A DNA stretch of 53,116 nt, filler included, from Jimgerdemannia flammicorona (GCA_003990765.1; 2 parts of 2 records of this genome joined end to end with filler, not necessarily neighbours in it), one strand, 5' to 3'; counted from the whole stretch's first letter, positions 3,355-51,714 are shown. Notes: generated from the sequence alone by a model not told the origin. Numbers and translations are program-made.

Positions 3355-4017
3355 ATCAGAAGAAGGGTGTCCCAAGGAACTGCACCCTAAAAGAAGCTCC
3401 TCAGACCCTCAAGGTATAAGAAGATCTCATCTGAAAAGAATATCAGAAAGCTCATCAAGGACATTTTTTTTATTTTTATTTTTTATTATTAAATAAGTAT
3501 TCAATAGAGGAAAAGGTTTTAGTGAGATGTGATGCTGATACAGTGGATATGAAGGTTGGCAGTAAAAGTTAAGCAATAGGAAATGATCAGTTTATGTAAA
3601 TTTTCACGACAGAGTGAGAAGGTAGAATAAAGCATTTTTCAAAGCAAGGTGCAATTGATCTACAACCTGCCCATGGCACCACAATACATGATAGTCTTTA
3701 TTCTAATTAGAAAATAAAGTTCAAGTACAAAAGCCATAGATCTAACTCCAGAATTCCAGTATTGGAATGGTGCATAAGTACCTAGACCTTGCTCTTATCC
3801 AAACAAAAGTCTGAATAGAGCATCATGGATCTACACACATGATAGGCCATTAAAAATCTGATATAGAAATAATTGGGAAAAGATACTGGTCATGTGATCA
3901 AATGTTAAAAATGTATAAACAAATACCAAAAATGGAACTAGACCAATGATGATCATATGTCATCACATAATTGTCACTTATAGGTTTAAAAACCTAAAAA
4001 TCATCAGCACCTAAAGG

Positions 4018-23388: not shown

Positions 23389-23796
23389 CTCAAGATCAAG
23401 AAGCTTCATCTGAAGGCCCAGGTCCCTCAACATCAAACAGAAGGAGCCATTGGTCTTGACCTACACTCAGTCAAACAAGTCACTATTCCAGTCAAGGGCT
23501 GCACTCTGGTGCCTACTGGAATTGCAGTTCAATGCCTTGAAGGACATTATGCTAGAATTGCACTGTGATCAGGACTCAGTGTCAAACATCATTTAGATGT
23601 AGGCACTGGTATCATTGACCCAGACTTTCGAGGACAAGTTCAAGTCTTGCTTGTCAACCAGAAGGATCAAGACTACACAGTTAAAGAAGGAGACTGAGTC
23701 GCACAAATGATCCTAGAAAAAGCCAGTCAACTCAAGATTACAGAATTCCAAGAACTCTCTGAAACCAAATGAGATCAAAAGGGTTTCGGCAGCACT
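23389..23796 (+). pseudogene. dUTPase domain of Gypsy-2, between the gag zinc knuckle and the protease
   Basis: AIGLDL, LVPTGIAV, ARIAL*SGLS, GIIDPDFRGQVQVLL, GD*VAQMI, KGFGST. Confidence 0.93.
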
Positions 23797-26512: not shown

Positions 26513-26612
26513 NNNNNNNNNNNNNNNNNNNNNNNNNNNNNNNNNNNNNNNNNNNNTTAATTAATTAANNNNNNNNNNNNNNNNNNNNNNNNNNNNNNNN
26601 NNNNNNNNNNNN
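26513..26612. other. Artificial assembly joiner (N44-TTAATTAATTAA-N44)
   Basis: Exactly 100 nt with a central linker that has stops in all six frames. Confidence 0.97.
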
Positions 26613-26909
26613 ATCTCGGCAACACGTAATCCGATTTTAATGTTCTTGGTATCATTAGAAAGGCCTTATTAAGGGCTTTCAAATGACACCAAGATCATCA
26701 AATTTGGATGATTATTCATCAAGTTATTGATGTAAACATTTAATTGTCTAATTTGGAAATCAAAACAATGGTTGATTCGAATCCGATTCGAATCCGATTC
26801 GAATCCGATTCGAATCCATCCGGATGGGATTCGAATCCGATTCGAATCTGATTCGAATCCAATTTGAATCCATCCGAATCCCATCCGGATTGACTCATTC
26901 GGAGCACTA
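26613..26909. mobile_element. Right end of a young hAT-family MITE or element
   Basis: Ends in ...TTCGGAGCACTA (TIR TAGTGCTCCGAA) after tandem palindromic GATTCGAATCC subterminal repeats; CpGs largely intact. Confidence 0.8.
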
Positions 26910-28466
26910 CATCACATGGTGGAGGTCTCAAAAGGAACAGAAGTAAGCCTTCATGAGCAATCTTGTACAACTTGTACAACTCATTGGCATATAACTTATC
27001 AGTATACAGCTCACTCACTCACTCACTCATGCTCTATTTCTGTAATACCCATCTCCATGTTTTATTTAATTTCATTTTTTATGTGGTCTCTTCCTAAAAA
27101 ACACTCATATCTGCATGCAATCTGCCTACATGCAACTCACCTATATACAGCCTGTCTACATATAACCTGTCTGCATGCAACCCATCCATATGTAACCTAT
27201 CTATACACTTATCTCAGTCCCTCAGATCAGGGCTCAGTTCTATTGGAAAGGAGAGTTCAAAGTTACTCGAGTTCAACTACATCCAGCATCTGATCAAATA
27301 GAGAAATTCAAGGGCAAGATATTTAGCATAAGTAGTACCAGCATTGTCATCAAGGCTTGGAGATCTATATTCGAATCAGAGCTAATCATTCTTGACTAAG
27401 GGGTCTATTGGCCAGCAGAAGTAACCAATGACAAAGAGAACTATATCTTTATTAATTAATGTAGAGAGGTGGCTGTGATAGTGATAAGAAATCTCTACAG
27501 TAATGAGCTTCACCACTATATCAACAAGATTTGCAAGGATTGTGTCAAATACTGGGTGGTAGAAAAGAGGGAGTGAAAAAAGCAAGGAGGGGGGGTTTGG
27601 ACAGGAATTGGATATACTATAACACTGATAAAGGGTGGGTTCTAGAGTTTTGAAATCTCCTACACTTGTCTCTCTTTTTTTTTACTCCTCCCCAGATAAA
27701 CCACACTCTTCACCAATATACTCTTTTTGATACAAATCCAGGGATACATAAGATTCTATACCCCTACTGAAACTTTAGAAGTACTATCAAAGAGCAAACT
27801 GCATGCAAGCATGACACAGCCTATGTGGCAATAGTGGCTATGATCTGGGGTTCTTTGAGCAGATTGGTAGAGCATATGGCAGGCCAGCTTGGTGGTGATC
27901 CCAGTGTGGCTGTATGTATATTCTTAGTGCAATTTAGTATGCTGTATGAGGTAAGGAGCTCTGCTTTTTTGAGGTGCTACAGCCCAGGGGGTTTCTGCAG
28001 CCCAGGGGGTTTTTGCTCCCCCCATACACAAAAAGAACTGACTGGTTGCCATCTGTTTTGGTAGGTTTCCAAACTGGGACTCTCAGGACTGGACCAAGAG
28101 CAGGCATCCACTAGCACAGCCTGGTAGTATGAGGTCCTGGACCAAGGGTTCACCCAACTGTATGCTTGTATCATATCAGGATATGTCAGGTGCAATCTTT
28201 CTCTGCCTATACACACAGACAACAATATCACCCCAGTAATGTTTTATATTTCAGAAAGGAAGGGCCCAACCTGGGAGGATAGCAGCAGAGTCTGGTACAA
28301 CCTCACCTATGGTTTCAGGGTCCCATTTGCAGCCAACATGACCATCCTCTTTCAACCACATGACTACCATAGTACCATTGCCTTCGAGGAGAGCTTGGAT
28401 ACAACAGTTGTCACACTCACAACAGATGATAGACTCATCAAGGCCTGGAACTGGTGGGTGGAGTAG
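26910..28466 (+). pseudogene. Spliced, decayed TET/JBP-like Fe(II) dioxygenase gene (exons 26910-26942, 27226-27634, 27742-27950, 28065-28466; 5' end cut by a MITE)
   Basis: Three GT-AG introns with matching phases give one reading frame (a few TAA/TGA/TAG stops) ending ...GYVRCNLSLPIHTDNNITPVMFY...SSRVWYNLTYGFRVPFAANMTILFQPHDYHST...; HxD plus a distal His about 52 residues later. Confidence 0.62.
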
Positions 28467-29500
28467 TTTTTGTGAGAGTTAGGCAATCTTTCACAAGGGA
28501 TAGGCAGTCTTTCATGAGGGTTAGGCAGTTATTTTGCATGAGTTGGGCAGTCTTATGTGAGGGGTTGGGCTGGGCACCTCTTCTGTAGTACTAGCTTAGC
28601 TATTATGCAGGGCCCTACCAGCCCCTTGGCCCTGCTCTGCAGTATCACTGGTATGGCACTGTGGCACAGGGCCAGAGTGCCCATGAGACTCAAACTGGTG
28701 ATGGGGCCTGAATCTATGGTGGACTCTGACTGCTGGAAATGCCCTCTAACTGCCAGAAGCACTCTCTGACTGCTAGAAGCACCCTCTGACTGCCAGAAGC
28801 ACCCTCTGCCCCAGACTCCTTGGTAGCTTGGGGCTGCTCCTGTGCCACTAGTAAAGGGCCACAAATTTTGCACACTCCCTCTACCTGCCCTACTCATCCC
28901 AGACACTTGCAGCTTAAGGCTGCCTCTTGCTACCAGCAGAGGGCTGCAAATTTTGTATACTCTCTTATCAACCCCATACCCACTGACCCTGCCAACCGAC
29001 CCTGCCCACTGACCTGGGTGCTGACAGCTTGGGGCTGCCTCTCACTGCTGGCAGAGGGCTGCAAATTTTGTGCACTCTCTCCATCTGCCCTGCTCATCTC
29101 AGATACTTGTAGCTTGGGGCTGCCCCTTGCTGCCAGCAGAGGGCTGCAAATTTTGTATGCTCTCTCCACTGACCCTGTGCCCACCAACTCCACTGACTGA
29201 CTCTGCCCACTGATCCAGGCACTGACAGCTTGGGGCTGCCCCTCACTGCTGGTGGAGGGCTGCCCCTCACTACTAGCAGAGGGCTGCAAGTTTTGTGTGC
29301 TCCCTCTACCAACTCCCCCAACTGGGACACTTGCAGCTTGGGGCTGCCCCTTACTGCTGGCAGAGGGCTGCAAATTTTGTGTACTCCCTCTGTCAACCCA
29401 CCCACCAACCCAGGCACTGACAGCTTGGGGCTGCCCCTTGCTGCTGGCAGAGGGCTACAAATATTATACACTCTCTCTGCCACTAATCCCACCAACCACT
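28467..29500. repeat. Imperfect tandem repeat array between the dioxygenase and hAT transposase 3' ends
   Basis: About eight copies of agcttggggctgcc...gcagagggctgcaaattttg at ~80-120-bp spacing (28820-29480), plus short 20-23-bp repeats at 28475-28560 and 28725-28805. Confidence 0.9.
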
Positions 29501-29627
29501 ACCTACTTGGGCCACAAACTCTGGGCCAAGTCCTCAGGGTTTTTTACCTTTTTATTATTTTTGAAAGGTATTAAATATTCCACAAGGCCAACCAATTTAT
29601 CTGCGAACCCCCAGGACCTACTGAATT

Positions 29628-32330
29628 TTAGTGGCCCAAGCCCCACTAAGACTTCAGACACATATACACCCAGATTGTCTCAGCATTCAGCACACACCTC
29701 TTTGGGGCAACAAGGTCTACCCTACCTGAGAATATCTGCTCGATGGGAGCACTAGAGGCAAGAATTGCCAGGTAGTCCCAAGTCATACCACACAGGCTGG
29801 GGAAGTCTGTTTGATGCAGCTACATACTCTAGTAGATAGAGTGGTGGGTAGAGTGGTGGTTAGATTGGTGGGTTAAATTGGTCCAATGCCCATCTGACAA
29901 CCCACCTTCCACCAGTTGAGCATCTCCATGCCCTCCAGCAGGATCACATGGTCACTGGTGAAATAAATGATAAGTTCATCTATTGACAGTAGCTCTTTTA
30001 CTGACAGCTCCCTCTTCCTCTTTCTGCTGAAGTAAATGTGGGGCAGGAGGGATCCCTCAGTATATTCATCTGGACTTCAGCTGGAACCTTGTGGCAGCAC
30101 ATAGTTTTCCTGGTACACTTTGATTATGGCCTGCTTGGTTCTCTCAATGAAGTGCTGCTCTCAGCCCTGATCTTTATGGTATTGTAGCTTTAAGCATAGG
30201 TCCAGCACTGTTTAAAGGAGAGGAGAGAGTGAGTTTTTGCAGAGGTTTCTCTGTTTTGGAAGAGGCAATAGCCACATACTGATATTGACATACCTGTACT
30301 GATTGAATATATAGCAGTATCTGTTTGGGAGTAGTACTTTCGGAACTTGCTAAGAGCAATCTCCATGGCATCTCTCTGATCTGAGCTTAACTGTAAATTA
30401 CCATAACCCTCCAGCCTGTCCTCAAGCTTGTCCTCTAGCCAGTCAATCAGAAGGTTGTATACTAGTATTGCCAAGCTTATTGTCAGGATCATTTATTTGA
30501 CTATATCCTTTGTACAATCATTGAAATACTGACAGTTATATGTGGTGAGGTATTGCATTGTGTGGAGGCAGACAAAATAAGTATGAAGGCTAACAAAATA
30601 AGTATGGAGCCAGAGCAATTACCACTTACTTCTAAAACTCTGACAATATTCCTAAGTACATCCCACTCACTTTTACCTAGAGCCTCGGCCCATATTTCCT
30701 TATCAGCAGTCACTGTTGAATCTATTGGCTTTTTTTGTTTTTTGTTTTTTTTTTTTTTAAAATAAATCTTCAATTATCTAAAACAAGTTGCTTCAGTCAA
30801 CTGAAGAAAAAATGAATGTATACTATAGCAAACTCCAGCATGTGCTGGATCATTGCAAATGTTGATTTCTAATGTATACAGATGTCCAATATAAGCTCTG
30901 TCAGGGCTAAACTAATTGCCCTACACTGTGTAGTGAATTTGTCTTGTCATTGTGGGGATGATCAGACTGATACAACCAGATTGCACAGCTTGGAAATTAT
31001 ACTCAGGGCTCCTCCTCTCTTGGATGTTTTGTCTATGTGAATAAGATAGTTCTGAACAGTGAGGTTCAGTATATGGGCCTGGCATCACACATGACAGCTT
31101 TCTGCACTGAAGGCCATATTTTCCTGTTTGAGGCTGGCTGCTAAAACTTTGAAAAATGTTGAGTTATTTGTGTTATTGTCCATTATAATGACCAAAATCT
31201 GTACTTGAAATATTTGGTTAGTGAATTTATGTGAAAATAAATAACTAATAAAATCTGGTTTGATTTAGGATCTCCCTCAAAACACTGACCTGACAGCAAG
31301 CCCCCCTTTTTTACCTTGGTTGTGATCCCAAGCTCTTGGATATAACTAATAAAAACATCTGCAATGTTGTCTCCAGAATGAGGGCCAGCAAGTTTGATGA
31401 AGTCAAGGGTGAGAGATTTAAGCTGCCAATTGAGGTCAATCTAATAACCAGTAATGCCCAGAAATGAAATTGCATTGGGGGATGTCAATATGTCGATCAT
31501 AAATGAAATTTTGTCTGCTGAATTCTGCTTATTGAATGTGATGTTAAATTTGTGAGCTCTTTTATATAATTCAGCTTGCAAAGATCATGGTGCTGCCCTT
31601 ATTTTACCTGAAGTGTCTGGTGGAGATTGTCATGCTCCTTCATAGGTCTCCAGGACATCTTTGCAAATAGTATTGGTACTTGGCAAATATAAATCATACT
31701 TGAGGAGGCCAAAGATGCTATGTAATTAATCACTCTCGATAGTTGTGAATGGCTGGTCTGTGTACACAATCCAGTGAATAAGCCGATTTTGAAATTCTGC
31801 CAAAGTGTATGGCTAAGTATTTTTGATTAAATGGTGTTGTTGGTACAGAAATGGTCAGGCAATCAGATAAATATACACACAACAGCTTGGATGTTGATTT
31901 TATTTATCTCTGTGTTCTTTTTGATTTTGTTAGAGTGCTTGTCTTTTATGTGTTAATTCATATTCGAAGTCATACCCTCAAGCATTTTGAACTTCTGGCT
32001 GGTGCAGTTTATGGGGGTAGATGAAACAATATCATGTGTATGTCAAAATAAACAAAAAGTATCAATAGGTGCATCTTAATTTTTCACCTGCAATAATTAC
32101 AAACAATATCATCTCCTATCTTAGTACAATATTGCCAGATTTTGGAGCAAAAATTACATGGAAGGTGTGGAACTATCAGGGATATTTGACTTGAAGCATT
32201 ATTGGTACTGTGAACTGTTGAAGACTGATCTGTCAACATGTGTGTTTGCATGTTTGCATGTATATATATATATATGTGTATGTATTGTGTATGTGTGTGT
32301 GTGTATTGTATTGTGGATATGTTCGACATA
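29628..32330 (-). pseudogene. hAT transposase, intron-containing, decayed (copy 1)
   Basis: BED-like SKIWQY...IVCNYC; WIVYTDQPFTTIE; DILTSPNAISFLGITG; DFIKLAGPHSGDNIA; MDN..NN; CQAHILNL; C-terminal dimerisation motif DYLAILASSAPIEQIFS...LNAETI...CLKS. Confidence 0.9.
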
Positions 32331-32339
32331 TGAGTTATG

Positions 32340-32678
32340 TGGAGGATTTGGATTGGAGGATTCAGTTGAAGGATTCAGATGAGGATTCAGATTAAAGGAT
32401 TCAAATTGCAGGATTTGAATTAGAGGATTTGAATTGGAGGATTCATATTGAGTTATTTGGATTGAGTGATTCAGATTGAGTAATTCAGATTGAGTAATTT
32501 GGATTGAGTGATTTGAATTGAGGTGGTTCAGATGGATGATTCGGATGGGGTAATTCAGATGGGGTAATTCAGATTAATCCAAGTTGATTCAGATGGCTTT
32601 GGATTTGAGATTTGGATCAAACCATTATGTGACAAATCAAATCCGAATTTGATTCAAATTGACTCATTCAGAGCACTA
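32340..32678. repeat. Subterminal GATTCRGATT-like repeats and TIR of hAT copy 1
   Basis: Short repeats ending in GACTCATTCAGAGCACTA at 32678. Confidence 0.85.
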
Positions 32679-33004
32679 CTTGTACATATGTTGGAGTTTC
32701 AGATATATATATGTCTTCAGTTATAGGTATATAGTTGTTTACTCTTTAGTAGTAGAAAGAGCATAGTGTATAGAATAAGATATGAGTAACTATAACTGCT
32801 ATATCTAGTATAGTCAAGCTACTAGACAATAGCTATATAACCTAGATTTAATAGAGATATAGTGCTTGGGGAGTAGTAATAGAGAGTTTTGGCCTATATA
32901 ATCTAAGTTCTCTTCTAATAAAATCTACAGAACTTTGAGTCTATAAAATAAAAAAAAAAATAAAAAAAAAAAAAAAAAAATAATAAAAAAAATAAAAATA
33001 AAAA
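32679..33004 (+). mobile_element. Possible strongly decayed retroposon 3' end with A-rich tail
   Basis: AATAAA at ~32917 followed by a ~60-nt A-rich tract at 32944-33004; no TSD identified. Confidence 0.3.
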
Positions 33005-33024
33005 TCTTTTGGCATGCAGTTTCC

Positions 33025-34976
33025 TTTTTTTTTTTGTTTTTTTTTTTTTTAAAATAAATCTTCAATTATCTAAAACAAGTTGCTTCAGCTGACCAAAGAA
33101 AAAAAGGACACATACCACAGCAAACTCCAGCATGTGCTGGATTATTGTAAATGTTGAGTTCCAATATATACAGACATCCAATATAAGCTCTTTCAGGGCT
33201 AAACTAATTGCCCTACACTGCATAGTGAATTTGTCTTGTCATTGTAGGGACAATCAGACTGACACAACCAGGTTGCATAGCTTGGAAATTATACTTAGGG
33301 CCCCTCCTCTCTTGGATGTTTTGTCTATGTGCATAAGATAGTCCTGAACAGCGAGGTTCAGTACATGGGCTTGGCATTATATACAGCAGCTTTCTGCACT
33401 AAAGGCCACATTTTCCTGTTTGAGGCTGGCTGCTAAAACTTTGAAAAATATTGAGTTGTTTGTGGCATTGTCCATTGTAATGGCCAAAATCTATACTTAA
33501 AATATTTGGTCAGCAAATTTATGCAAAAATAAATAACCAATAAAATCTGGTTTGGTTTAGGACCTCCCTCAAAATACCAACCTGATGGCAAGCCCCCCTT
33601 TTTTACCTTGGTTGTGATCCCAAGCTCCCAGATACAACTAATAAAAGCATCTGTGATATTATCTCCAGAATGAGGGCCAGCAAGTTTGACAAAGTCAAGG
33701 GTAAGAGATTTAAGCTACTAATTGAGATCAATTCAATGACTGGTAATGCCCAGAAACAAAATTACATTAGGGGACATCCATGTGTCGATTGTAAATGAAA
33801 TTTTACCTACTGAATTCTGCTTATTGAATGTGAGATTAAATTGGTAAGCTCTTTTATATAATTTAGCTTGCAAAGGTCATGGTACTGCCCTTATTTTACC
33901 TGAAGTATCTGGCAGAGATTGTTGTGCTCCTTTCTATAGGCCTCCAGGATATCTTTGTAAATAGTATCAGTACTTGGCAAATATAAATCATGCTTGAGGA
34001 GGCCAAAGATACTATACAATTGATCACTCTCAATAGTTGTGAATGGCTGGTCTATATGTATATACAATTCAGCAAATGAGTCAATTTCAAAATTCTGCTG
34101 AAGAGTATGGCTAAATATTTTTGATTAAATGGCATTATTGGTACAGAAATAGTTGGGCAATCAGATAAACAAACCCACCACAGCTTGGATGTCAATTTTA
34201 TTTGTCTCTATGTTCTTTTTGATTTTGTCAGAGTACTTGTCTTTTATGTGTCAATTCATGTTCAAAGTCGTACTCCTAAGCATTTTGAATTTCTGGCTGG
34301 TGCAGTTTATGGGGGTAGATGAAATAATATCATGTGTATGTCAAAACAAACAAAAAGTGTCAATAGGTATATCTTAATTTTTTACCTACAATAATTACAA
34401 ACAACATCATCTCCTATCTTAGTACAATATTGCCAGATTTTGGAGCAAGGATTGCATGGAAGGTGTAGAACTATTAGGGATATTTGACTTGAAGCATCAT
34501 TGGTACTGTGAACTGTTGAAGACTAATTTGTTGACATATATATTTTCATGTTTACATGTATATACATATATATATATATATATTGTATATGCATATATAT
34601 ATATTGTGTTGTGGACACATCTGGCATATGAGTCATATAGAGAATTTGGATTGGAGGATTCAGTTGAAGAATTTGGATGAGGATTCAAATTGAAGGATTC
34701 AAATTGGAGGATTTGAATTGGAGGATTTGAATTGGAGAATTCAGATTAAGTAATTTGGATTGAGTGATTTGGATTGAGTGATTCAGATTGAGTGATTCAG
34801 ATTGAGTGATTCAGATTGGGGTGGTTCAGATGGGTGATTTGGATGGGGCAATTCAGATAGGATGATTCAGATTAATCTGAGTTGATTTGGATGGCTTCAG
34901 ATTTGAGATTTGGATCAAACCATTATGTGACAAATTGAATCCAGATTTGATTCAAATTGACTCGTTCAGAGCACTA
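33025..34976 (-). mobile_element. Truncated hAT element (copy 2), direct repeat of ~30731-32678
   Basis: Collinear with copy 1 from the poly-T tract to the TIR (...TTCAGAGCACTA at 34976); lacks the C-terminal transposase part. Confidence 0.9.
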
Positions 34977-35111: not shown

Positions 35112-35498
35112 TAGTGCTCCCAAATAAGTCAAATCAATTCAAATTGAATCAAATTGAGGGTTAAACAAGTTGAATCGAATTGGAGATTTTTCAATTCAAA
35201 TTAATTCAAATCAAATCAAAAGTCAAATCAAATTGAGGGTCTGATTTGAACCCTAAATTTCAAAATGTAATAACTCAGTGTAAACTCATCCAAATCTAAT
35301 GTACTTTAGCTTGTTAGAATCACATTAATACAGTGAATCTAACAAGCTAAAATACATTAAATTTGGATGAGTTTTTGTCAAGTTATTACATTTGAAAATT
35401 AAGGGTTGAATTGAACTTCAAATCGAATTGGACCTTTGATTTGATTTGAATCAAATCAAATTGGACCCTTGATTCGATTTGATTCGTTAGGAGCACTA
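35112..35498. mobile_element. hAT-family MITE
   Basis: TIRs TAGTGCTCC / GGAGCACTA; 8-bp TSD GCTGAGAG / GCTAAGAG; AATCGAAT-like subterminal repeats; internal inverted repeat. Confidence 0.9.
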
Positions 35499-37171: not shown

Positions 37172-38732
37172 GTATAATGGTGATCCCAGAATGATGACAT
37201 CAGCACAGGAGACAGTCTTTCCTTGCAAGCCACCAGATCGGAGCACAAGAAGATCATATGGTATATGAGATGAGTAATAATGACCAACTGTGAGTCATTG
37301 TGACCACAGTTGAGTATTTTGAGGAATATAAAAGAAGAATCAAGAAACTGCAGTAGTAGCAACCAACAAGACCCACCAATCCCAAAATAGCTCAAAGACT
37401 TACTACAAATAAAATGTCTGCTGCTCACCAAACCTCAAAGTCAAGAAACTACCAAGGCATCTCAGTTGAAGAAAGGATGTTCCAAGACATCAGAAAAGCC
37501 ATAAGGACCCACTCAAGAAGGACTCCTAGTGTCAATCTGAGTACTAGTGACCCTTATCACTATATCCTCTATTACTATTGCTACCAAATACCTCCAAATA
37601 TAGTAGGAGTACAAAATAGAAAATCTCCTCTGCTGGGATTTCCCACAGACCTGCCCCCAAGAGCTATAAGATATCACTCCTATGGATATATATAAGGTAA
37701 GGACAGCTAAGAAGATCTATCAGATCTTCAGGCATGCACCATGGTCAATCCCCAACTTGGAGTATGTTAGAGTTTCAGACTTCAGAGACCTGTTATCTTA
37801 CCATATCAATGCACTAGAAGCCAGGGTAGCTACAGAAGCCCAGTCCACTATTACCTTCAATAGTGATGAAGTAGAAGACTTCTGGCATTCCATTCTTCAG
37901 GACAACCTAGACCAATTCCTGCAAGGATTGATCTCAGTATTCCAAGGCCCAAGCATCTAGGTTAGACCCACATTTGTCTCCTATTTTGTGGAAGAGAACC
38001 TCATAGATTGAAGAGCCCCTGATTTCCCCACTACTGAATGTGATGACATCATCAGTGATGATGTCATCCCGTATGACATATGTAAAATGTGCAATGAAAC
38101 ACATGAAGTATACAAAATATATGATGATGATGACCACACAGATGAGATATTCATGGACCTCATCTCCTTCAAAGACATTCTGATCTCTGAGAATGAAGCC
38201 CCCATGGTCTTGAACATTCTACTCTAAGTCCCTTAGTTATACTGAATAATGCCAGCACTGGCATTTTGATGTAATACTGAATAATACCAGCACTGGCATT
38301 TTGATGTAACACTGAATAATACCAGCACTGGTATTCTGATGTGATACTGAATTATACCAGCATTCTGAACCTATATAACCATCAGTACCAACTCTAGAAT
38401 TTCTTAGTTTTTCCTGTCTTGGTATTTTATTTTAGTTATTGAAATTTATATTTAGCTTTATATCTTAGCAACCATTGAATTATATTTTGTATAAATATCC
38501 CTCTTATTTCCTCTGAAATAAAGTCAGTTCTGGTTCACTTATATATATATAATTCCTTACAAGCAATCTAAGAGGTAACAAGACAGTTAAAGATAAGAAG
38601 TTTGAAGACTATAAGACCTTGAGAAGGTACTCCAATAAGAACTTGCTTATAACAAACTTGAGTTAGTCTAAGAGATATATCTTGAAGAGAATCTGGCATA
38701 TTTGAAGAACTCAGCGACCACTATATGACAAC
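37172..38732 (+). repeat. Long direct repeat of ~44425-46019 (extra-ORF region plus LTR) preceding Gypsy-3
   Basis: Collinear match including translated RVSDFRDL, ISVFQGPSI and SENEA...LNILL, a 35-bp tandem repeat (38240-38360), TATA and AATAAA signals. Confidence 0.9.
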
Positions 38733-41700
38733 TTAGTACTCATTGGCTGGTGATTCAAGATGAATCCCTCACTTTTAAGCTGAAAAATGAACAACCCCCA
38801 CAACAACTACCCTGACTACAAGAGTCACCCTGCAAGAATTCAAGATAAGATAGAAATGCACCCCCCCATATTCTATAGATATACTACTGAAGAGTCAATC
38901 CTGACCTTTATTGAAGACTTTGAACAATTTGCCACTGTATGAGCCCTTGGTGTGGATGCACAATTGGCCCTTCTATCAGTCAGCCTCAGAGGACCTGCCA
39001 GAGACAAGTTCAATATAGCTACTATTACTGATAATAGTACAGCTAAACTTGCCAATATGAAGGCCTTCCTCAGAACAACATACTATACTGAAGAGATCAA
39101 GCAAGCTCTCAAGGATCAACTCAATACTATCTGCCAGAGACTCAGTGAAGATCCCAACTCATTCTATACCTGAATCTGCCACCAGATTATCTTGGCTGGC
39201 TATGATGATACCCTCAAGGAACAAATAGCAGATTCAACCTTTCTCAAAGGAGTTCACCCTGAAATTGCCTTAGCAATCCAGTCTACCCCAGCTACACTAA
39301 CCCTTGATCAGAAAGTGGTCTTTGCATAGAGATATTGGACTGTCAGACACCCTGCTGAACACTTAATGGAGAAAATAACTAATATCAAGATAGAGCTATT
39401 GAAGCCAACCAGTATCATATCTGCTATAGTTGTAAACAGATAACCATCCCCACCTACCCCCAAGACAACCAAAGCTGATCCAGTAGAGGAACTTGCCAAG
39501 TAGTTCACTAAAATAACTGCATATCTTAGTAATGTTATTAGAGAAGTCTGAAGTGCCAACAGGAGACCAGTGCAGAGATTTGCAGCTGCTATAGAAGAAT
39601 GCAATATCACATACTTCAGATGTGGAGAAGAAGACCACTATATAAAGAATTGTATGACCAAAATAAGATATAAAGCCCAACCAAGTAATACGAGCAGAAC
39701 TAGAGAACAAATCAATACAGTAATCATCAAGGAGATTGGTGACACTGATGATGAAGAATACTATGAGGAGCTTGAATTCTACTCTGCTACTGAAGATACC
39801 AGAACCTGGTCCAAGCCCTATGACAAGAAGAGCAACAGCAAGCCAGTTGGAAGACCAAAGAAGACCCCAGCTGTTACAATATAAAGTAAGACCCAACCCA
39901 AGGAGATTGATCAAGATATGGAGTTAGATGAAGCTGCCTGCCAAATCATAGAAGGCACTACTCTAGTCTCAGGAGAAAGCAAAAGCAAGAAGGAACAGAA
40001 GCTGTGCAAGACCAAGATCCATCAGTATGATATTTATAAAGACCTCAAGGAACAGAAGGTCAATGCTACTTTTGGATAACTAGCTGAAGTCCCTGCCTTT
40101 AGACAACAGTTGAGAGTAGGACTTACAACTACTGCCAAGAATCAAGAGTACAAGATTGTAGAAGCTCACAATACACAGGAAGAATCTGAGAACTCAGATA
40201 AAGAATCTGAAGACCAGTACAAGACATCAGCCTATACCCTATATCAGATTGAAGATTGTATCTTTGATGTCATCATTGATACCAGTGCTAGAGGATACTT
40301 CATAAGCAAGAAGGCAATTGACTGCCTAGGTTGGGATATTGAAGAGTCCACCAAGATGGTCTATGTCACAGCAGATGGTACATGAGCTACCCCTCTTGGC
40401 AAAATCTGAGAAGTCCCCATCAAGATAGGAGGAGCTACTATCCCAGTAGATATGATTGTTACAAGCACCACTAACTATGATATCCTCATTGGCAATCAAT
40501 GACTTCATAAGGCCAGAGCTATCATTGATCTCAATGCCCAGAAGATACAGATCAATTATAGAGAAAGAAAGGTATGAGTCTCTATCAATGTCCATAAAGA
40601 AGTTCTACCAGACATAGAGGAAGGAGATGAAGAGGACACAGAAGTCTTCATATACTCAGTGAACAAGAACAAGAATAAGACACTCAAGCTCATAGATGAG
40701 TAGTAGTATAACAAGATCATTGATGGCTATATCCCTCAAGGAAGATGCCCCCATGGTATTAGGATGTACTGCTCTAAACATCTGAATGACTGCTGGTCCT
40801 GTATCAGTGAAGTCAGGAAAATCCACCAACAGAAATATGAGCAAGAAGCTACCAAAGCAAAAAGGAAAGCCGGAAAAAATGACCAGCTCCCTGAGCTTCA
40901 AGCTGACAGTGACGATGAGGAGGAACAAGAATCAGACATCACCCTCAAGGTTAAGAAGTTTCACCCTGAAGCCAAGATCCCAGAATACAAGACTGAAGAA
41001 ACCATAGGAATGGACCTTGCCAGCATTCAAGATACTACTCTTGAACCACAGACCACCACCCTACTTGGCACTGGAATTGGAGTCAAGCTGCCAGAAAACT
41101 ATACCAGAATTATCAAGACCAGGAACAGTCTGGCCAAGAGCGAAATCTCAGTTGAAGGAGAAGTAATTGACCCTGATTATACTGACAAGATCTTTCTCAT
41201 AGTCAGAAATCACAACCCCACCACTCCATTCAAAGTCAAGAAGTATGACAGGATTGGCCAGATGCTGATCCATGAAATTAAGAAACCCAAGATCATTGAA
41301 GCCATTGAACTCATCAAGACCAAGAGAGGAGAACAAGGCTTTGGATCTACTGGAAGAGGAGTCTATACTGCCACCAAGATTACTGAACTTGAGCACAAGA
41401 AAGACAAGAACCAGAACAAGCACACATATACTATTGGAGAAAACTTTCCCCTAGAGGAACAACTTCTCAAGATCCTGCACCAGAACAAAGGAGTACTTGC
41501 TACAGACTTCAGGGATATCCACAATCAAGAACCCAAGTACTATCATAAAGTTGACACTAGTGATACCAAGCCCATCTACCAGAAAGCCAGACCCATACCA
41601 CCTACCTACAGAGAATGGCTGTGAGCAGAACTCAAGGAAATAGAAGAAGCCAGAATCATCAAACAAGCTATTAGTCTCTGGGCTTCACCCATTATCCTTG

Positions 41701-44700
41701 CTCCAAAGAAAGGAAGCAAGTCTGGAGAGTTTGCATCAAGACTCTGTATTGACTACAGGAAGCTCAATACCATCACCAAGAAGGATAGGCAGCCCTTGCC
41801 AAATATTCAAGAAATCCTTACCACTCTCAGAAGCAAAGCCAAATACTACACCACCTTGGATCTGTTCTCAGGCTTCCATCAGATTGGTCTCACTCAAGAT
41901 GCTAGTGAGAAATCAGCCTTTATCACACCTGATGCCACCTATATCTATCTGCAAATACCATTTGGAATGTGCAATATCCCAGCAAGTTTTCAGTAAATGA
42001 TGAACAGAATCTTCAGCAACAAGATTAGAAAATGGCTCTTTGTCTATGTTGATGATGTGATCATCTTCAGCAATACTGCATGGGAATATGTCAATCACAA
42101 TACAGCTAGCTTTCAAGAAGCTCAAAGAGCATGGCCTCTATATTAAGCCTAAGAAATATAAGTTTGCAGCTCAGGAAATTGCCTATCTAGGACATCCCAT
42201 CAACCAGACCAGAATCCACACAGACTTTATGAAGATTGAGGCTGTTGCAGCCTACTCGAGACCCAGAAAACCCACAGAAGTCCATGCCTTCCTTGGACTA
42301 GCCAGCTACTATAGAAGATTCATCAAAAGATATTCCAACATTGCAGCACTTATCTACAAGCTACTGAAGAAAGAAACTAAATTTAAATGGACCAAGGAGT
42401 ACTAAGAAATCTTCAATGAGCTCAAGACCAGGTTGACCCAAGTACCTATCCTCAGAAGACCAGATTGGAATCTAGAATTCATCCTGCAGACAGATGCAAG
42501 TGCTATAGGACTTAGAGTAGTCCTAGCTCAGAAGAAAGATGGACATGAATATGTCATCTCCTATGCAAGCCAAGGCACCCACAGAGCAGAACAGAACTAT
42601 GAGTCATATAAGCTCAAATACTTAGCAGTAGTTTGGGCAGTAGATAAGTTTCACTACTACCTAGCTAGAAAATACTTCACTATTCAAACAGACTATTCTG
42701 CTCTTGTCTGACTATTCCACACTCTAAACCCCAAAGGAATATATATCAGATGAATCTACAGGCTGCAAGAGTATGACTGTACTATCAAGCACTACTCAGG
42801 GAGAACCAATGCTGATATACTCTCAAGGACACCCTGAAACACCCCCATCAAGACTATTCAACATGAATAAGGAGCTATACTATGGATTAATTGGCTACCT
42901 TAGGCAGTAGAAGATGCCCAACCACCTCAAACTCTGGACAATTACCATCATCAACCAGACTTGGAAACAGTTTAAACTAGACAACATTATACTCAGAAAA
43001 AAAGAAAAGCTAGTAATACCTGAATACAAGAAGTATCAAGTAATGAAGGAAGTACATGAGTAAGGATACTTAGGAGGAACTAACACATATGATAAGGTAA
43101 GAAGAACTATATGGTGGCCCAAGATAGAAGAAGGCCTGTGCCAATTTGTCAAAGAGTGTGATAAGTGCTAAAAACAGAAACAAGATCAGCAAGACCAGGT
43201 ATCTGGGTCATCAAGAATTGAGCCTATCCCCTTCCACCATATCACAATAGATATTATTGGGCCACTATTAGTAACACTATCAGGAAACTACTATATTATA
43301 GTTATTATAGACCTCTTTACCAAATGGATAGAAGCAGGAGCATTACAAGAAACCAATGCCCTCTCTATAGCTGACTTCTTGTACTGAAAAATTATCTGCC
43401 GCTACAAGACACCAAAGAAAATCACAACAGACTATAGCACAGAATTTGTCAATAGATTCCATGAGATAATATATCAGAAATACAAGATTCAGTACATCAA
43501 GACCACTACATACCACTCTCAAGGAAATGGACAGACAGAGAGAACCAATAAGACCCTCAAGAACATTCTGACAAAGATCTCAGAGACATATGAGAATTGG
43601 GATAACTATCTTCCAACTGCCCTCTCTGTTTTACAAAATATATAATCACAGAGCACAAACTTTACCCCAAGAGAACTGCTCTTTGGAGAAGATTCTGACA
43701 GAATCTCAGCTACAAATCTAGATCTAACTTGGAGATGAGTTGATGCAGAAATCTGGAGACTATACCAAATCAGGAAGAAGGCTGAAGATTATATTATCAA
43801 GTCACAAGTGCTGACAAGAAAGAATGTGGAAAAGAATTACAAGACCCTAGAACCCATCTGAATCAGAGAAAAGGTCCTACTATATCGAAATATGGTAGAA
43901 GCCTCATGGTCATGAAAACTGGAGCCCAAATGGGAAGAACTCTTCTATATGTAAGATATCAAGGAAACTATCTTCTGGCTTAGAAAAATCTCAGGGACCA
44001 TACTGCCTATCATGGTACATAGGAACAGACTCAAGAAGTACCATGAACCTATACAAGAGAAGCAAAACATAATGACCACCTGTGAGGTTCTAGTCTGCAA
44101 ATTGTAACAGCATGTCCTATGACCAGCAGGCTATCTGTCTGGACTATTCTCTAAGAGATACAGTACCAGCAACTACTCATCCATGAGACTTTCAAAGCCA
44201 GAGGAGTTCAAACCATCAACTGATTAGTTAAGATCAGAATCAGGCCCTTGCTCTATATGAAGGGAATGACCCTTCACTATCACACCAAAATATATAGGGA
44301 AGACACCAGCCCATAAATACTACTTTTTAACCCCTTGCCAGAGGTTATAGGATCAGCAAATTTTTCAGGACTGGACCAATGAATAAGGATATGTACTCGA
44401 GAAGATTCTTATTCAGAAGGAAGATATAATAGTGACCCCAGAATAATGATATCAGCACAGGAGACAGTCTTTCCTTACAAGCCACCAGATCAGAGCACAA
44501 GAAGATCATATGACATATGAGATGAGTAATAATGATCAACTGTGAGTCATTGTGACTATAGTTGAGTATTTTGAGGAATATAAAAGGAGAATCAAGGAAC
44601 TGCAGTAGCAGTAACCAACAAGACCCACTAATCCCAAAATAGCTCAAAGACTTACTATAAACAAAATACCTGCTGCTCACCAAATCTCAAGGTCAAGAAA

Positions 44701-46019
44701 TCACCAAGGCATCTCAATTGAAGAAAGGATATTCCTAGACATCAGAAGAGCCATAAGGACCTGCTCAAGAAGAACTCCTAGTGTCAATCTGGGTACTGGT
44801 GACCCTTATCACTATATTCTCTATCACTATGAAATAGAAAAAAGGATCATCATTACTACCAAATGCTTCTAAATATGGCAGGAGTACAAAATAGGAAATC
44901 TTCTCTACCAGGAGTTCTCACAGACCAGTCCCCAAGAGCTACAAGATGCCACTCCTATGGATATACATGAGATAAAGATAGCTAAGAAGATTCATCAGAT
45001 CTTCAGGCATGCACCATAGTCGATCTCTAACTTGGAGTATGTTAGAGTCTCAGACTTCAGAGACCTGTCATCCTGCCATATTAATATACTAGAAGCCAGA
45101 GTGGCTACAGAAGCCCAGTCCACTATCACTCTCAATAGTGATGAAGTAGAAAACTTCTGATATCCCATCCTTCAGGACAACTCAGACCAATTTCTGCAAG
45201 GATTGATCTCAGTATTCCAAGGTCCAAGCATCCAGGTTAGACCCCCCCAAGACCTCACATTTGTCCCCTATTTTGTGAAAGAGAATCTCATAGATTGGAG
45301 AGCCTCTAATTTCCCTGTTGCTGAATATAATGATATCATCAGCAATAATATCATCTCACATGATATATGTGAAACACATAACAAAACATGTAAAGTACAT
45401 AAAATATGCGATGACAACAACCACACAGATGAGATGTTTGTAGACCTCATCATCTTCGAAGATATCCTGACCTCTGAGAATGAAGCCTCTATAGTCTTGA
45501 ATATTCTGCTCTAAGTCTCTTAGTTACACTGAATAATGCCAGCACCAGCATTTTGATGTAACACTGAATAATATCAGCACTAGTATTTTGATGTAATACT
45601 GAATAATGCCAGCACCAGTATTCTGATGTGATACCAAATTATACTAGCATCCTGAACCTATACAACCATCAGTACTGACTCTGGAACTTCCCAGTTTTTT
45701 CTATCCTGGCATTTTATTTTAGTTATTGGAATTTATATTTAGCTTTATATCTTAGCAACCATTGAATTATATTTTGTATAAATACCCCTCTTATTTCTTC
45801 TGAAATAAAGTCAGTTCTGGTTCACTTATATATATATAATCCCTTACAAGTAATCTAAGAGATAACAAGACAGTTAAAGATAAGATATTTGAGGACTATA
45901 AGACCTTAGGAAGATACTTCAATAAGAACTTGCTTATAACAAACTTGAGTTAGTCTAAGAGATATATCTTGAAGAAAATCTGATATATTTGAAGGACTCA
46001 GTGACTACTATGTGATAAC
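38228..46019 (+). mobile_element. Decayed Ty3/Gypsy (Gypsy-3): gag-protease-dUTPase-RT-RNase H-integrase-extra ORF, flanked by direct repeats
   Basis: gag (FIEDFEQFA; ICQRLSEDPNSFY; knuckle remnant YFRCGEEDHYIKNC), protease VIIDTSA, RT LCIDYRKLN, LDLFSGFHQI and VYVDDV, RNase H LQTDASAIGL, integrase IDIIGPL and GNGQTERTNKTLK. Exact LTR start unresolved. Confidence 0.92.
40945..41355 (+). pseudogene. dUTPase domain of Gypsy-3, between protease and RT
   Basis: VKKFHPEAKIP, IGMDL, LGTGIGV, TRNSLA, VIDPDY, DRIGQMLI, RGEQGFGSTG. Confidence 0.93.
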
Positions 46020-46208
46020 AGACAAATTTATCTATATTATAGCCTAAGAGTTAGATATTCTTTTTCTTCTGAAATAAGCTTAATATTCTTCTTATTTATA
46101 GAATTCAGATCTATTAGAGTTAATCTTACTATCTTAAATTAGTTTTTATAGTAGTTTTTAAAGTTATTCTTTTTATAGTATTCTAGTTCAAAATAATGGC
46201 TATAAATA

Positions 46209-46638
46209 TAGTACTCTTAAATAAATCAAATCAATTTGAATTAAATCGAATTAAGGATCATTCAAATTAAATTAAATTGAAGATTTTTAAATTTAAATTA
46301 AATTAGATTAGAGTCTGATTTGGTTTGAAATATTTATCTCAAATTTAAAATATAACAACTCAATAGAAATATATTCAAATTTAATATTTTTTTATTATAC
46401 TAGATTCTTTATCATAAGATATATTAAATATGCTAAAATTTATTAAATTTAAATATATTTTGGTCAAGTTATTGAATTTTGAAAAATTAGATTCAAATTA
46501 GACTTTGAATTAAATTGAATCTCAATTTAATTTGAATTGAATTAAATTATATAAATTGATTCTTAATTTAATTTGAATATTTTAAATCAAATCAAATTAA
46601 AGACAAATTTAATTTAATTTAATTTGTTCTGAGTACTA
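46209..46638. mobile_element. Old, AT-shifted hAT-family MITE
   Basis: Degenerate TIRs TAGTACTC / GAGTACTA; near-TSD TATAAATA / TATAGATA; same subterminal repeat layout as 35112-35498. Confidence 0.75.
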
Positions 46639-47978
46639 TATAGATAATAATATTAAATCTATTAGCAATCCTTATGATTTCTTTAAGAGAGCTTAGTTCT
46701 TTTAGCTCAATCTTGACTTATATATTTTCTTTTATATAGATCTCAGATATAGTAGTTTATCTTCTTATTTTCTATAATATTAGATAATTTTAAAAGAATT
46801 AATAGAAATTATGTATTATAACTTTATATAAACTTAAGTTACTTAATATTTACTAGTTTATCTCTAGTTAGTTTAATAGTATTAGTAGGCTTGAACTATT
46901 TATAAAGAGCCTCCTTAAATATTATCTATTCTTTAATACTTATTTCTTGATAGATAGAGATAGTTATAATATAATTATACCAATAGATATTTAATTATAT
47001 ATAATATATATACTGAATCTGATTTTCAAATTTAGTATAATATATAGTTAATAATTACAAAGTTTGATATAATATTAAGATAATATAAAATAATATTTAA
47101 GATAATGTTTAAAATAATATAAAAGATAAATTACTTATATATAACTTAGCCACTATATAGCTAGCAAACTTATATAAATATCTCTAGTATTTAAAGTAAA
47201 TAAATCTTAGATAAAAATAGTTCAAAGTAAAGAAACTAATACATAAGTCTACAGGTAGATATATCTTCAAACTTACTTCTATACTCTTATTAAGAACTCT
47301 GAGAAGTCAAAAAAAAAGATAAAAAAATCTGCTATACTTCTCAGATTAAGTATCTGTTATATTATATTATATAGAAAATATAAACTATAAATCTAACTAT
47401 CTATTATTTATTTATTTATTTATTTATTATTATTATCTAACAATAAGAGAGCTTCAAGTTAATGCTGATGAAAGACAAGATATATATGATAATATAGTAA
47501 TTTTATATCCATAAATATACTGGGCTTCACTTGATAGAGCTACTCTTAGAGATATTAGTTGATTTAAGACAGTGATAGCTAGTAATAACATCTTGTCTAT
47601 TTGGGTCCATCTCAAGCCATCCGATGTATAGCATTAATGATATATTACTTATTATTTTGTGCGTGACACTTTTCCCCCTTTTTTATTTGCACCTCTTTTT
47701 TGATGAAATTATTTGATGAGGATCCTGTAATGTGAAGAAATTATCTGTTGTCAATCCATCACGTAGCGATCTCCAGACCATAGAATTAAGCAGGTTTATT
47801 ACTTCGACCTGAGCGTACAAGCAAGCAAGATTTATTATTCTACTATTAAAAGTATTACAATCCTATGTATCACACAAAAGTTCATTCGCGAGCGCTCATG
47901 AAGGGCGATTGACGACGTCGAAACCAGTGCACAGAGTGCAGATCTAGATTTCCAACGGTTCACCATATCCGCTTACGC

Positions 47979-48941
47979 TTAGAACAGCGTGACGACGAAG
48001 GCGGCGACGCCAACAAGAGCGAGGACGGTCTTGCTCACGCTCACGCTGAGGCCCGAGGCATTAGTGGTCCTGTTCGGTGGGACCGAGGTCGAAGCCGAGG
48101 AGGAACCGCTGGAGGTAGCCACGCTGCCCCCACTGGGGTTGAGTATGAGGGTGGAGCTGGCGGCAGGGGCCTGGGGGCGGATAGTAATATTGAAGACGAG
48201 CTTGGTGTTGGTGTCGATGGAGAGGAAGGTGACCTATTGAGGTGGTGTGCAGAAAAGAGGGATGAGAGAGGCAAAAATAATGTCTTAGCCATGCATATCG
48301 AATCTCAGGGAATGATCTTCCTTTTCACCCATAGTTGTCATCAACCAACCCCTATTTTCCTAATTTCATTTCGATAAAACATACATAGTAAGGGCCGGCC
48401 GGGGTCGTGGCGGGGATCGGGTAATTGACCTGGTGCTCCCAGAAGGTGACATTGCCGTTCGTTTTCGCGAATTGCTGGGTCGTGGAAACATCAGCGGAAG
48501 AGATGATGGTGACGGCGGTGAAGTTGGCAGCCGGATCAGCGCTCAGTGTAATCGAGATCTGGAGACCTGAAAGCGTTTGGGAAGTCGGTTGTGTGCGTGT
48601 GTGTGTGTGTGTGTATGTGTGTGTGTGAATGGTGCGGTTCGGAATGAGAAGGTGAATAGAGCGTGGTCAGTCCGTGGGGAACCATCTTAATTGCGATAAT
48701 TGACTTCCGTATGTCTGTCACTTGAGCGACAGCTCTAAGACATGTCGAGGAACTCACCGGTGGTATCTTGTGTCAGGATCTGGTAGGTGCAGGGCAAGGT
48801 TTGGCCAGCGACATAGGGACCGTTTTGGATGGGAGAGGTGACATTGTAGTTCTTCATGGGAGACGTGACTGGAACCGTGGTTTGGGCGGTAACCATAGAG
48901 GCGGCAGCGAGAACGGCAGCGATAGTGGCGATGAGCTTCAT
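47979..48941 (-). CDS. Secreted, probably GPI-anchored Ser/Thr-rich cell-surface protein, ~206 aa (exons 48941-48758, 48566-48385, 48233-47979)
   Basis: Signal peptide MKLIATIAAVLAAASMVTA; NVTSP...AGQTL beta-rich domain; Ser/Thr linker; hydrophobic C-terminus VLALVGVAAFVVTLF*; two in-phase GT-AG introns. Confidence 0.88.
48590..48627. repeat. (GT/AC)n microsatellite in intron 1
   Basis: Near-perfect dinucleotide run. Confidence 0.95.
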
Positions 48942-50532
48942 GGTAACTTTCTTTGTTTGGTTGGTTGGAGTACAGGATAAGAAAGTAAAAGAAGAAAGAA
49001 AAGGATAAAGGTGTAGAGACAGGGGGGAGAGAGTATTATTTAGCCTACGGATAAAAATAGCAATGACACCATGTCTGACCTTTCCTCTCTTTGGGTCCAA
49101 AATTTCGGTGTGCCACCAATCCGCGCTGATTTTCATATCGAACAGGTCTTGACCAAATTGACCACCGAACCCGCCCACCGACGCCTGGTCGCATGCGGTT
49201 ATCCCTAAGAAGTTCGCCCCGAGCAAAACCATGCTTCTTGTTCACGAGGGGGATCTCGTGGTTCTGCAGACAAAAATCGAATTTCGAAGGTAGATCGGCC
49301 TCCGCGATCAAGTTCACAAAAAGGAGTTCTCACGATCTTGCACAGGTGTCAAATCTTGAAACTACAAAGTTAATGTACGCGGAACTTCGAGTGCTCCGAA
49401 CCAGCTCAGCCCGGGAATACCAATATCCGCACCATTTTCCTCTTCAAGAGAGCAAAATATAGCATGAACCTCGCAAATAGACAAAGCCGATATATAGCTT
49501 TCGGCAAAATTTATAGTGGGCAAAACTCGCCATATCTGGCAGTCATTTTCTTGGCAAACGCCAAAAATGTCGAGCTGGCGACTTTACTCATGTTCAAGGG
49601 CAGCACATCTAAATAATCTTTTGCCTTTTCAAAGAGTCGACTAAACACCAACCCGTCATATTCTACATCCGCATTCAGAACCTGTTGATAGAAGCAGTGC
49701 CAATCTCCATGTCGTTACAAATGTGCGTATGTGGAACACAAGCACATCCATATCGGTTGCCTTTCATTCATTGTTCGTATCACATATTATTGGATGCTTG
49801 CATTACCATCGGGCCCGTTTCCTTCTGATACTGCATAGATAATCTCGTGAATAATCATGTGATGTTACCAGGTGTGTAATTAGAGCTCCAATGACTACTA
49901 TAGGTATTGTATGACAACATGATAACACTCAACACCTGATGGCGAAGAAGCGGCGACGCGAGACGTGCGGTTGCTACTATATGCAGGAAGGCCTAGACAT
50001 GGGATAACAAATGTCCTCTACGTTCAGGTGAAAGCATTTTTTCCTTTGGAGAGGAGAGACCATTTTTGGACCACGATCGGAGTTTGCGGGAGTTGAATTA
50101 TCCGACAGCCTATAATCAGGCACTCTGTCAACATTGTTAGGTTGAAGGCTTCTTCCTCGAGTTAGCTCACGGTGCCGTCGTCTTCACGGGGCGGGGTGGA
50201 GAGAAGGAAGAGTGACGTGACTAAGTAGGGACCTTCCGCGTCACGTGAGTAGTCGAGGTATGTGTTCACACCAAAAGTAGTTAATTTAATAATCACTATC
50301 ACCGAAGGAAGTATCAGTTTGTATGGTTCATCGTTACCTGTTGATATCTTTTACGGTTCACGCCATCTCGCTATTCTGAAATTTTCCACCCACCCTCCGA
50401 CCCGCTCTTGTTTTTGTCGTCTCACACGAAATCCGATTTATTTTTAAAACTGAACCCATGGCACACGTTTATTTTCCCAGTGTGTTTTTGATCTTCCACG
50501 ACTCCAATCACAACTACTACCACTGGCAAAGA

Positions 50533-51250
50533 CTAAGCGACCTGTTCAATAGAAGCAGACTTCTGCTCCTCAACATCCGTGGCGACGACCCTAGGCTTCA
50601 TGCCAGCTTCAGGACTCTCGAAGCTGACGACGTCGGCCATGCACACGTTGTGGGTGTTGTCCGGCCCGACGTGGAACACGCCGCAAAAGAGGTAGTGAGT
50701 GGATGTGTCCTTGGATTCTTCGGGCTCGGGTATGGGGGCCCAGACGACATGGATTACGCCGAGCTCGCGCCTGGGAGCGAGGGGGATGCCGTCGGTGGTG
50801 GTAACTTTATGAAAAAAAAAAAAAAAAAAAAAAAAATGGAACTCATTAATGAATGTAGACTGATTGTCCGTTCCAAGAACGGGGACAAAGACAAAACTCA
50901 CTCAGCTCAGTCGGGACGATGGAATGCAAAAGTTTTCCTTCAGCCGGCTGGCAGCAATCGGGGTTATTGAACTGCTCGCACGAGAGGCCGAACTCATGGA
51001 GCTCATGAATCGCGCTCACTTCGTCAACAACGCGGCCGATGGGCTCGATGATATTGTTGGGGCGGAGGAAGAAGTTGTGGCCGCGGTAGAAGCAGTTTAC
51101 CAAAGGTGCGGTGATTTTGCGATACGAGTCTATCAGGTGATGCTGGGCGACGACCTCGTCGGCGATGGGGATATTGGCGGCCGCGCTAAGCGTGGCAAGC
51201 AGGGCGAACAGGGCGGTGGCGAGCAGGACGATGCAGTTGAAGGCGGTCAT
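50533..51250 (-). CDS. Small secreted Cys-containing protein, possibly RNase T1-like fold, ~206 aa (exons 51250-50902, 50804-50533)
   Basis: Signal peptide MTAFNCIVLLATALFALLATLSAA; in-phase GTGAGT...AAG intron; C-terminus LGVIHVVW...YLFCGVFHVGPDNTHNVC resembles the end of fungal guanyl-specific RNases. The gene model is firmer than the fold call. Confidence 0.75.
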
Positions 51251-51714
51251 TGTTGTGAAGATGAGGGGGGTTTCGCTTTTTTTTCTTTTTCTTATTTTTC
51301 TTTGAAGAACTTGGATTGATTGGTGAGGCAGCTGAGGAAGTTGATAGAAAGTGGTAGGTCGACAGATGAGGGGTTTTATAGCCAAATCCCCTTGCTATCG
51401 AAAGGCCTTTGCATGGCACAACAAGTCCATCCGAAAGGCGCCTTTCTGGTAGCAGGAATAGCATCAGTGATGGCATCCAGATCGAATATAAACCGCCCTA
51501 GTTCAATATATTTCGGTTTCTATTGGGTTTGCACACTAATTAAAAAGCCGACTGTTATCCCAGATTTATCGATTTTCGAATCTACTAATGGTATAATGGC
51601 ATTGAAAGCACGAATGCAACAACACACCCCATCTTAGTTACAATCTACACCTTTTGATAACCCCCCACAGAAAAATAATGGGGGAAGAAAAGAATAATAA
51701 TAATAAAGAAATAA

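Follow-up and report, generated by a model that had tools for sequence, protein, structure and literature searches.

The window analysed here is a 53,116-nucleotide (nt) stretch of DNA, filler included, from Jimgerdemannia flammicorona (GCA_003990765.1). The region under study (positions 26910 to 32678) contains two decayed genes: a hAT transposase pseudogene on the minus strand and, on the plus strand, a pseudogene resembling 2-oxoglutarate (2OG)-Fe(II) dioxygenases of the TET/JBP type (Table 1). The two pseudogenes are contiguous and convergent, with 1.07 kb of tandem repeats between them, in agreement with the original prediction that the genes face each other across a repeat array. An artificial linker, N44-TTAATTAATTAA-N44, occupies positions 26513-26612, showing that the window is a concatenation of at least two contigs, and the DNA left of 26513 is therefore no neighbour of the studied unit. 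The second contig (26614-53116) has its start only about 300 nt left of the dioxygenase gene, and the unit thus sits at its very beginning; the contig start that had been proposed is real. Repeat types, short GT..AG introns and the taxa of the closest protein clusters were read, as a lead only, as hints of a fungal source, probably a basidiomycete.

Assignment of the minus-strand gene to the hAT superfamily rests on its dimerisation domain. One of the three minus-strand frames between 29500 and 32200 matches the Pfam family Dimer_Tnp_hAT (PF05699; E 8.2e-5, 22.8 bits against a cut-off of 21.4) over profile positions 26-82 of 84, corresponding to about nt 29804 to 29649. In-frame stops are located at 29646-29648 and 29628-29630, so that the stop predicted at 29628 is the second of the two. 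A BED-like finger lies near 32144-32067 and a C.AH.LNL block near 31100; the zf-BED matches of this copy (copy 1, E 0.082) and of a second one further right (copy 2, E 0.099) are below the cut-off.

On the 5' side of the transposase, the terminal inverted repeat (TIR) predicted at 32678 is real. Its 18-mer TAGTGCTCTGAATGAGTC has three matches in the window when as many as three mismatches are allowed, against 0.06 expected, and none of 100 shuffles reaches three; copy 1 moreover carries 14-nt subterminal repeats next to it. All three occurrences are on the minus strand and end at 26909, 32678 and 34976, these being the ends of long elements, all in one orientation. The claim that no matching TIR lies between the transposase stop and the dioxygenase also holds. 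Local alignment with five end sequences and a relaxed TIR scan of 26910-32200 revealed no left-type TIR or inverted partner, and the same interval contains no cluster of subterminal motifs, whose density peaks only at the known ends. Short TIRs with subterminal repeats are thus seen at one end of copy 1, and at both ends in the miniature inverted-repeat transposable elements (MITEs) of the family. An occurrence of TAGTGCTC at 29747-29754 was rejected as a hAT end, as it lies inside the sequence coding for the dimerisation domain. The 8-mer flanking the TIR of copy 1, CTTGTACA at 32679-32686, is encountered again 5.7 kb away as CTTGTACA-A-CTTGTACA (26962-26978), in the putative first intron of the dioxygenase gene, where it resembles a hAT excision footprint; the window holds four matches to this 8-mer, with 2.04 expected. 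As a target-site duplication (TSD) of copy 1 this repeat could not be sustained, since no TIR comes after it.

The dioxygenase-like pseudogene is interrupted by seven internal stops (26944, 27397, 27457, 27574, 27768, 28062 and 28125) ahead of its terminal stop at 28464-28466, and displays an HTD motif around 28200 and a distal histidine (YHST) around 28370. Positions 28080-28469 are 73% identical to P0002, a metagenome protein of 136 amino acids (aa; E 1e-55), and the alignment of P0005 (374 aa) falls into two segments, 27412-27636 and 27741-28391, separated by an intron-like gap. A weak N-terminal match, WWRSQKEQK*AFM against residues 15-27 of P0005 (E 0.013), begins at 26917 and was the best of an 837-nt search; the gene start may tentatively be placed at or just left of this position.

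A feature absent from the original prediction is found immediately to the left: positions 26614-26909 are themselves a hAT end (endX), in the same orientation as the end at 32678, whose body lies beyond the contig start. As the N-terminal match begins a few bases past the TIR of endX, this hAT would be nested in the first exon if the match is right; endX thus appears to interrupt the dioxygenase gene near its 5' end, about 14 codons in. In line with the earlier suggestion, the old unit thus seems to run on past the contig start. With 18 CpGs in 296 nt, endX has a CpG observed/expected ratio (o/e) of 1.71, against only three CpGs in the 1560 nt from 26910 on. Because it is CpG-intact beside a decayed unit (o/e 0.01-0.07), endX is taken as a younger, later insertion, and its intact CpGs suggest that this hAT subfamily has been recently active in the genome or is unmethylated there.

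On the other side of the dioxygenase gene, the tandem-repeat block is built from units of 21 nt (28473-28529), 20 nt (28724-28808) and 200/87 nt (28855-29497). The G+C content is 0.36-0.39 in the hAT body and spacer, and then rises to that of the array (Table 1).

Table 1 Features of the studied unit and of related hAT elements on the same contig (window coordinates).
Feature	Position	Strand	Description
endX, terminal 296 nt of a second hAT	26614..26909		11-nt subterminal repeats GATTCGAATCC; TIR GAGCACTA at 26902-26909
2OG-Fe(II)-dioxygenase-like (TET/JBP-like) pseudogene	26911..28466	+	exon-like segments 26911-26958 (tentative), 27196-27636, 27741-28466
Tandem-repeat block between both genes	28470..29540		1.07 kb; G+C 0.556; CpG o/e 0.012
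hAT transposase pseudogene, copy 1	29628..32144	-	usual hAT blocks all present, over three frames, with many stops
Transposase-5'-side end of hAT copy 1	32340..32678		14-nt subterminal repeats (~340 nt) and TIR 32661-32678 (...GACTCATTCAGAGCACTA)
hAT copy 2, same subfamily as copy 1	33020..34976	-	87-91% identical to copy 1 in gapless blocks
MITE 1, 387 nt	35112..35498		both TAGTGCTC TIRs; 8-nt TSD GCTGAGAG / GCTAAGAG; related to endX
MITE 2	46209..46638		TIR TAGTACTC; TSD TATAAATA / TATAGATA; in a stretch of 15% G+C

The dioxygenase belongs to a rare family. A full HMMER search of 1.84 billion representative proteins yielded five relatives, all from metagenome assemblies, of which P0002 is the closest. 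A word-based protein search with the protein of the window gave no match; with P0005 it returned P0005 itself and P0007, and the profile of a seven-row alignment (A1) retrieved only P0005 and P0002, both already among its rows. Comparison of P0005 with phage genomes by tblastn gave matches at chance level only (E 7-9). In A1, the first histidine of the HxD...H signature (H283) is present in all seven rows, and the position of D285 of P0005 is aspartate in five and asparagine in two; the distal histidine, within an HG[ST] motif, is found in six rows, the seventh being a truncated protein. A 112-aa open reading frame (ORF) of the window found no usable match in the ESM Atlas. For P0005, the neighbouring clusters include 2OG-FeII_Oxy_6 (score 0.96, 209 of 256 features), annotated in 15% of their members, and Tet_JBP (score 0.91), annotated in 16%, at a low recognition value for the query (2142), and this neighbourhood serves as a lead only toward the 2OG and Tet_JBP families. 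The first of these, PF20515, is described as Tet-like. Furthermore, the motifs of the dioxygenase family match, by eye, one by one and in the same order those of the PU-type TET sequences given in Table S1 of Kojima (2025; Biology 14:1741, PMC12730594). On the basis of the HxD...H motifs and of the language-model neighbours, the gene is best described as TET/JBP-like, a putative member of the 2OG-Fe(II) dioxygenases.

Taken together, we read the region as a dead composite hAT with a dioxygenase as cargo, a reading to which we give about an even chance. The end on the dioxygenase side would be hidden by the younger nested hAT and the contig break. Between the transposase stop and 26910, no recognisable transposon terminus and no notable inverted repeat could be detected, and the dioxygenase gene takes up all of 26911-28466, which leaves no space there for the boundary of a separate element. 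The ancestral element would have been a hAT with TAGTGCTC... TIRs bearing a TET/JBP-like dioxygenase gene downstream of, and convergent with, the transposase gene, the tandem-repeat block separating the 3' ends of the two. Judging from their families, the transposase of the living element would have cut and pasted it, and the dioxygenase would have oxidised 5-methylcytosine (5mC) on the DNA of its own element. Such oxidation would work against CpG methylation, by which repeats in this genome are silenced and mutated. The copy seen here would have lost that contest, with many stops in both genes and nearly all CpGs gone, before a younger hAT from a related subfamily jumped into the dioxygenase gene at its 5' end.

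Further support comes from metagenome contigs. Among 23 pattern matches examined, two loci were confirmed, L001 (3666 nt) and L002 (2870 nt), each containing an intact, intron-bearing dioxygenase relative that is 47-48% identical to P0005, in AT-rich, CpG-normal DNA. The plus strand of L001 carries, in order, the dioxygenase, a second gene, short GATTTGA-type repeats and a terminus at 3567-3627, the dioxygenase lying 1.67 kb inside the terminus. A hidden Markov model (HMM) of the seven hAT and MITE ends of the window recognises this terminus in the correct orientation with an E-value of 1.2e-6; the best E in 42.6 kb of other window DNA, used as control, is 3.9, and none of 2000 dinucleotide shuffles reaches the L001 score. 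No opposite hAT end is present within the 3.6 kb of L001, and the element owning the terminus therefore spans at least both L001 genes. L001 thus ties the rare dioxygenase family to the hAT-end family of the window a second time, which constitutes partial support for the composite element. The second gene of L001 (2320-3300, plus strand) is also intron-bearing and has no Pfam match; tblastx of L001 against the window finds the dioxygenase only, and this second gene is without counterpart there. In L002, a 74-nt direct repeat (1-74 and 181-254) is located upstream of the dioxygenase gene.

Several observations, set out in this paragraph and the next, weigh against a composite element. Copy 1 offers a single TIR, a TSD pair is missing, and the two genes are not seen together in a second copy. 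Copy 2 is likewise one-ended, and truncation is therefore common here, so that a break just after the transposase stop of copy 1 would look alike. In the TET+ hAT7 families described for TET lineage P4, the TET gene is upstream of and co-oriented with the transposase gene (Kojima 2025, PMC12730594); here the dioxygenase gene is downstream and convergent. As for L001, its gene order (dioxygenase, second gene, end, with no transposase seen) is unlike that of the window. Moreover, hAT ends are dense on the window contig, with seven termini in 26.5 kb or one per 4 kb, and if they are equally dense in the organism from which L001 comes, the L001 linkage could be due to chance. The neighbours could be a chance juxtaposition, a broken hAT copy 1 having lost its 3'-side end by deletion or by insertion of another element, and lying beside the dioxygenase and array remnant of another transposon, of any TET-carrying superfamily, with its transposase and ends off the contig. 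Both long hAT copies with a body lying on the contig are without their opposite end, copy 2 being plainly truncated inside the transposase; the G+C jump at the array (0.36-0.39 to 0.556) favours such a junction, and TET genes of rust fungi are found in seven transposon lineages, not in hAT alone (Kojima 2025, PMC12730594). However, no terminus of another element type is recognised at the junction, such a model needs a break confined to the short interval that separates the stop codon from the lost subterminal region, and L001 repeats the link of a rare dioxygenase family to this hAT-end family. We regard a chance juxtaposition as an appreciable possibility that falls short of an even chance.

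The identity of the enzyme is also open to doubt. No Pfam family was found at E <=1 for the two window dioxygenase ORFs, the five relatives or the eight L001 ORFs, and the curated models Tet_JBP (PF12851) and 2OG-FeII_Oxy_6 (PF20515) were likewise matched by none of the window ORFs, relatives and L001 ORFs. The family profile had no match at E <=10 among the PDB sequences, and two AlphaFold2 models were unusable (mean predicted local distance difference test scores, pLDDT, of 35.2 and 35.3). By eye, the 2-oxoglutarate-binding arginine of the PU-type sequences available for comparison (...RLG.S.Q...) has no conserved counterpart in A1. These missing Pfam, PDB and arginine correspondences would fit a plus-strand gene that is not TET/JBP or not cargo, namely a host gene, now pseudogenised, from an uncharacterised 2OG-oxygenase-like family amid hAT insertions. 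Such a host gene is improbable in our view: the family has kept the HxD and the distal HG[ST], it runs colinear with the PU-type sequences and has the 2OG-FeII_Oxy_6 and Tet_JBP neighbour clusters described above, and the CpG decay of the gene is repeat-like (o/e 0.043), compared with 1.0 in the genes at 47.9-53.1 kb.

The original prediction of a large hAT encoding its own methylation-modifying enzyme therefore stands in part, with contiguous genes, no terminus between them and the support of L001 on its side; the second TIR is absent from the visible unit. Similar decay of the two genes had also been put forward. The similarity is true (CpG o/e 0.043 for the dioxygenase, 0.073 for hAT copy 1), but unspecific, as an unrelated long terminal repeat (LTR) element at 37173-45650 has a value of 0.042. 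Indeed, CpG loss reaches one common floor in every old repeat of the window, which consists mainly of decayed repeats (o/e 0.03-0.11); CpGs are kept only in a Copia element (6-10 kb, o/e 0.5-0.65) and in the gene-like stretch from 47.9 kb (1.0).

The seven termini on the contig belong to one hAT group, three being ends of long elements and four coming from two complete MITEs. Copy 2 shows homology to copy 1 only from 30728 onward and has the same end type at 34976; it is without the C-terminal half of the transposase and without the opposite end, TAGTGCTT at 32860 having been rejected as its left end because it has no subterminal repeats and no TSD. One-ended hAT remnants are known, such as maize Fractured Ac (fAc) and others in which one terminus is kept and the other lost. 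Copies 1 and 2 resemble fAc in being one-ended; unlike in fAc, no aberrant-transposition footprint is tied to their breaks. MITE 1 provides an example of the left-end form in this group and is related to endX, whose subterminal repeats differ from those of copy 1. The TIR of MITE 2 reads TAGTACTC where the group has TAGTGCTC. The 8-nt TSDs are imperfect in both MITEs, with seven of eight positions identical in each pair. Since two MITEs are flanked by 8-nt TSDs, the hAT group on this contig is a canonical hAT with 8-nt TSDs, as shown in these MITE relatives.

Other DNA transposases are missing from the 26.5-kb contig, and the right-hand neighbour is the Ty3/gypsy LTR retrotransposon at 37173-45650. 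This element has LTRs of about 1.2 kb with 35-nt tandem repeats, and a dUTPase domain (Pfam dUTPase, E 2.9e-22) placed between the protease and the reverse transcriptase; dUTPase-like sequence, judged by eye, also occurs in elements at 851-1786 and ~23400-23568. Between this repeat graveyard and the CpG-normal genes lies an extremely AT-rich island (46000-47800, G+C 0.15-0.28), which looks like the product of transition hypermutation of a kind differing from the CpG loss elsewhere. In the CpG-normal region, the minus-strand ORFs 48735-49241 and 50846-51394 contain internal Met-initiated stretches that by eye resemble signal peptides of small secreted proteins.

In fungi, TET/JBP genes typically travel as cargo of transposons, hAT elements included, and have been described inside complete DNA transposons of 11 lineages, among which are 20 TET+ hAT7 families in six Puccinia species (Kojima 2025, PMC12730594). 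The hAT association of TET/JBP genes is thus already published, and the statement of the original prediction that none was established is outdated. Literature searches turned up no report closer than this paper, which alone was compared in detail. The Puccinia TET+ hAT7 elements and the unit of the window have in common a fungal hAT-superfamily transposon, CpG-depleted repeats, a joined TET/JBP-type gene and a proposed escape from methylation silencing. Besides gene order, they differ in their TSDs and ends, hAT7 having 7-nt TSDs and starting with CAACGGTGGG or CAGCGATGGG, and the group described here having 8-nt TSDs and starting with TAGTGCTC. They differ also in length, 8.1-9.8 kb for hAT7_PGr (five consensus sequences, Table S1 of PMC12730594) and 5.8 kb for the visible part of the unit. 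Six short dioxygenase motifs were compared with the supplementary file of Kojima (187,118 characters), in which five are absent and one has a single, unrelated match. The neighbouring transposase and dioxygenase genes also recall the KDZ (Kyakuja, Dileera, Zisupton) and Plavaka transposons with TET/JBP genes (Iyer et al. 2014, cited by Kojima), whose TET/JBP copies in Basidiomycota are expanded and often decayed (Iyer et al. 2014 via Kojima 2025, PMC12730594). In contrast to these, the transposase here is of hAT type (Dimer_Tnp_hAT), and no KDZ or Plavaka transposase is seen on the contig.

At its most specific, the composite reading would imply a hAT lineage with 8-nt TSDs, separate from hAT7, carrying a fourth and very divergent TET/JBP-like type and co-travelling with it in at least two unrelated-looking fungal genomes; we consider this rather unlikely. 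The dioxygenase type in question has no Pfam match and only five clusters among the 1.84 billion representative proteins. The present copy is dead and one-sided, and its value is that of a pointer: intact copies may be sought in the source genome and among relatives of the L001 kind.

A transposon that brings along its own enzyme for oxidising 5mC directly counters genome defence based on methylation, and such transposons have originated repeatedly in fungi (Kojima 2025, PMC12730594). If the composite element is real, the unit would represent an independent capture by a different hAT lineage, together with a new, very divergent enzyme type, and would illustrate how an element of this kind could still succumb to methylation and mutation. 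Co-travel of transposon and enzyme in the CpG-depleted genome of the window and in the organism of L001 would, if true, be a sign either of a long-standing partnership or of the entire element having spread horizontally.

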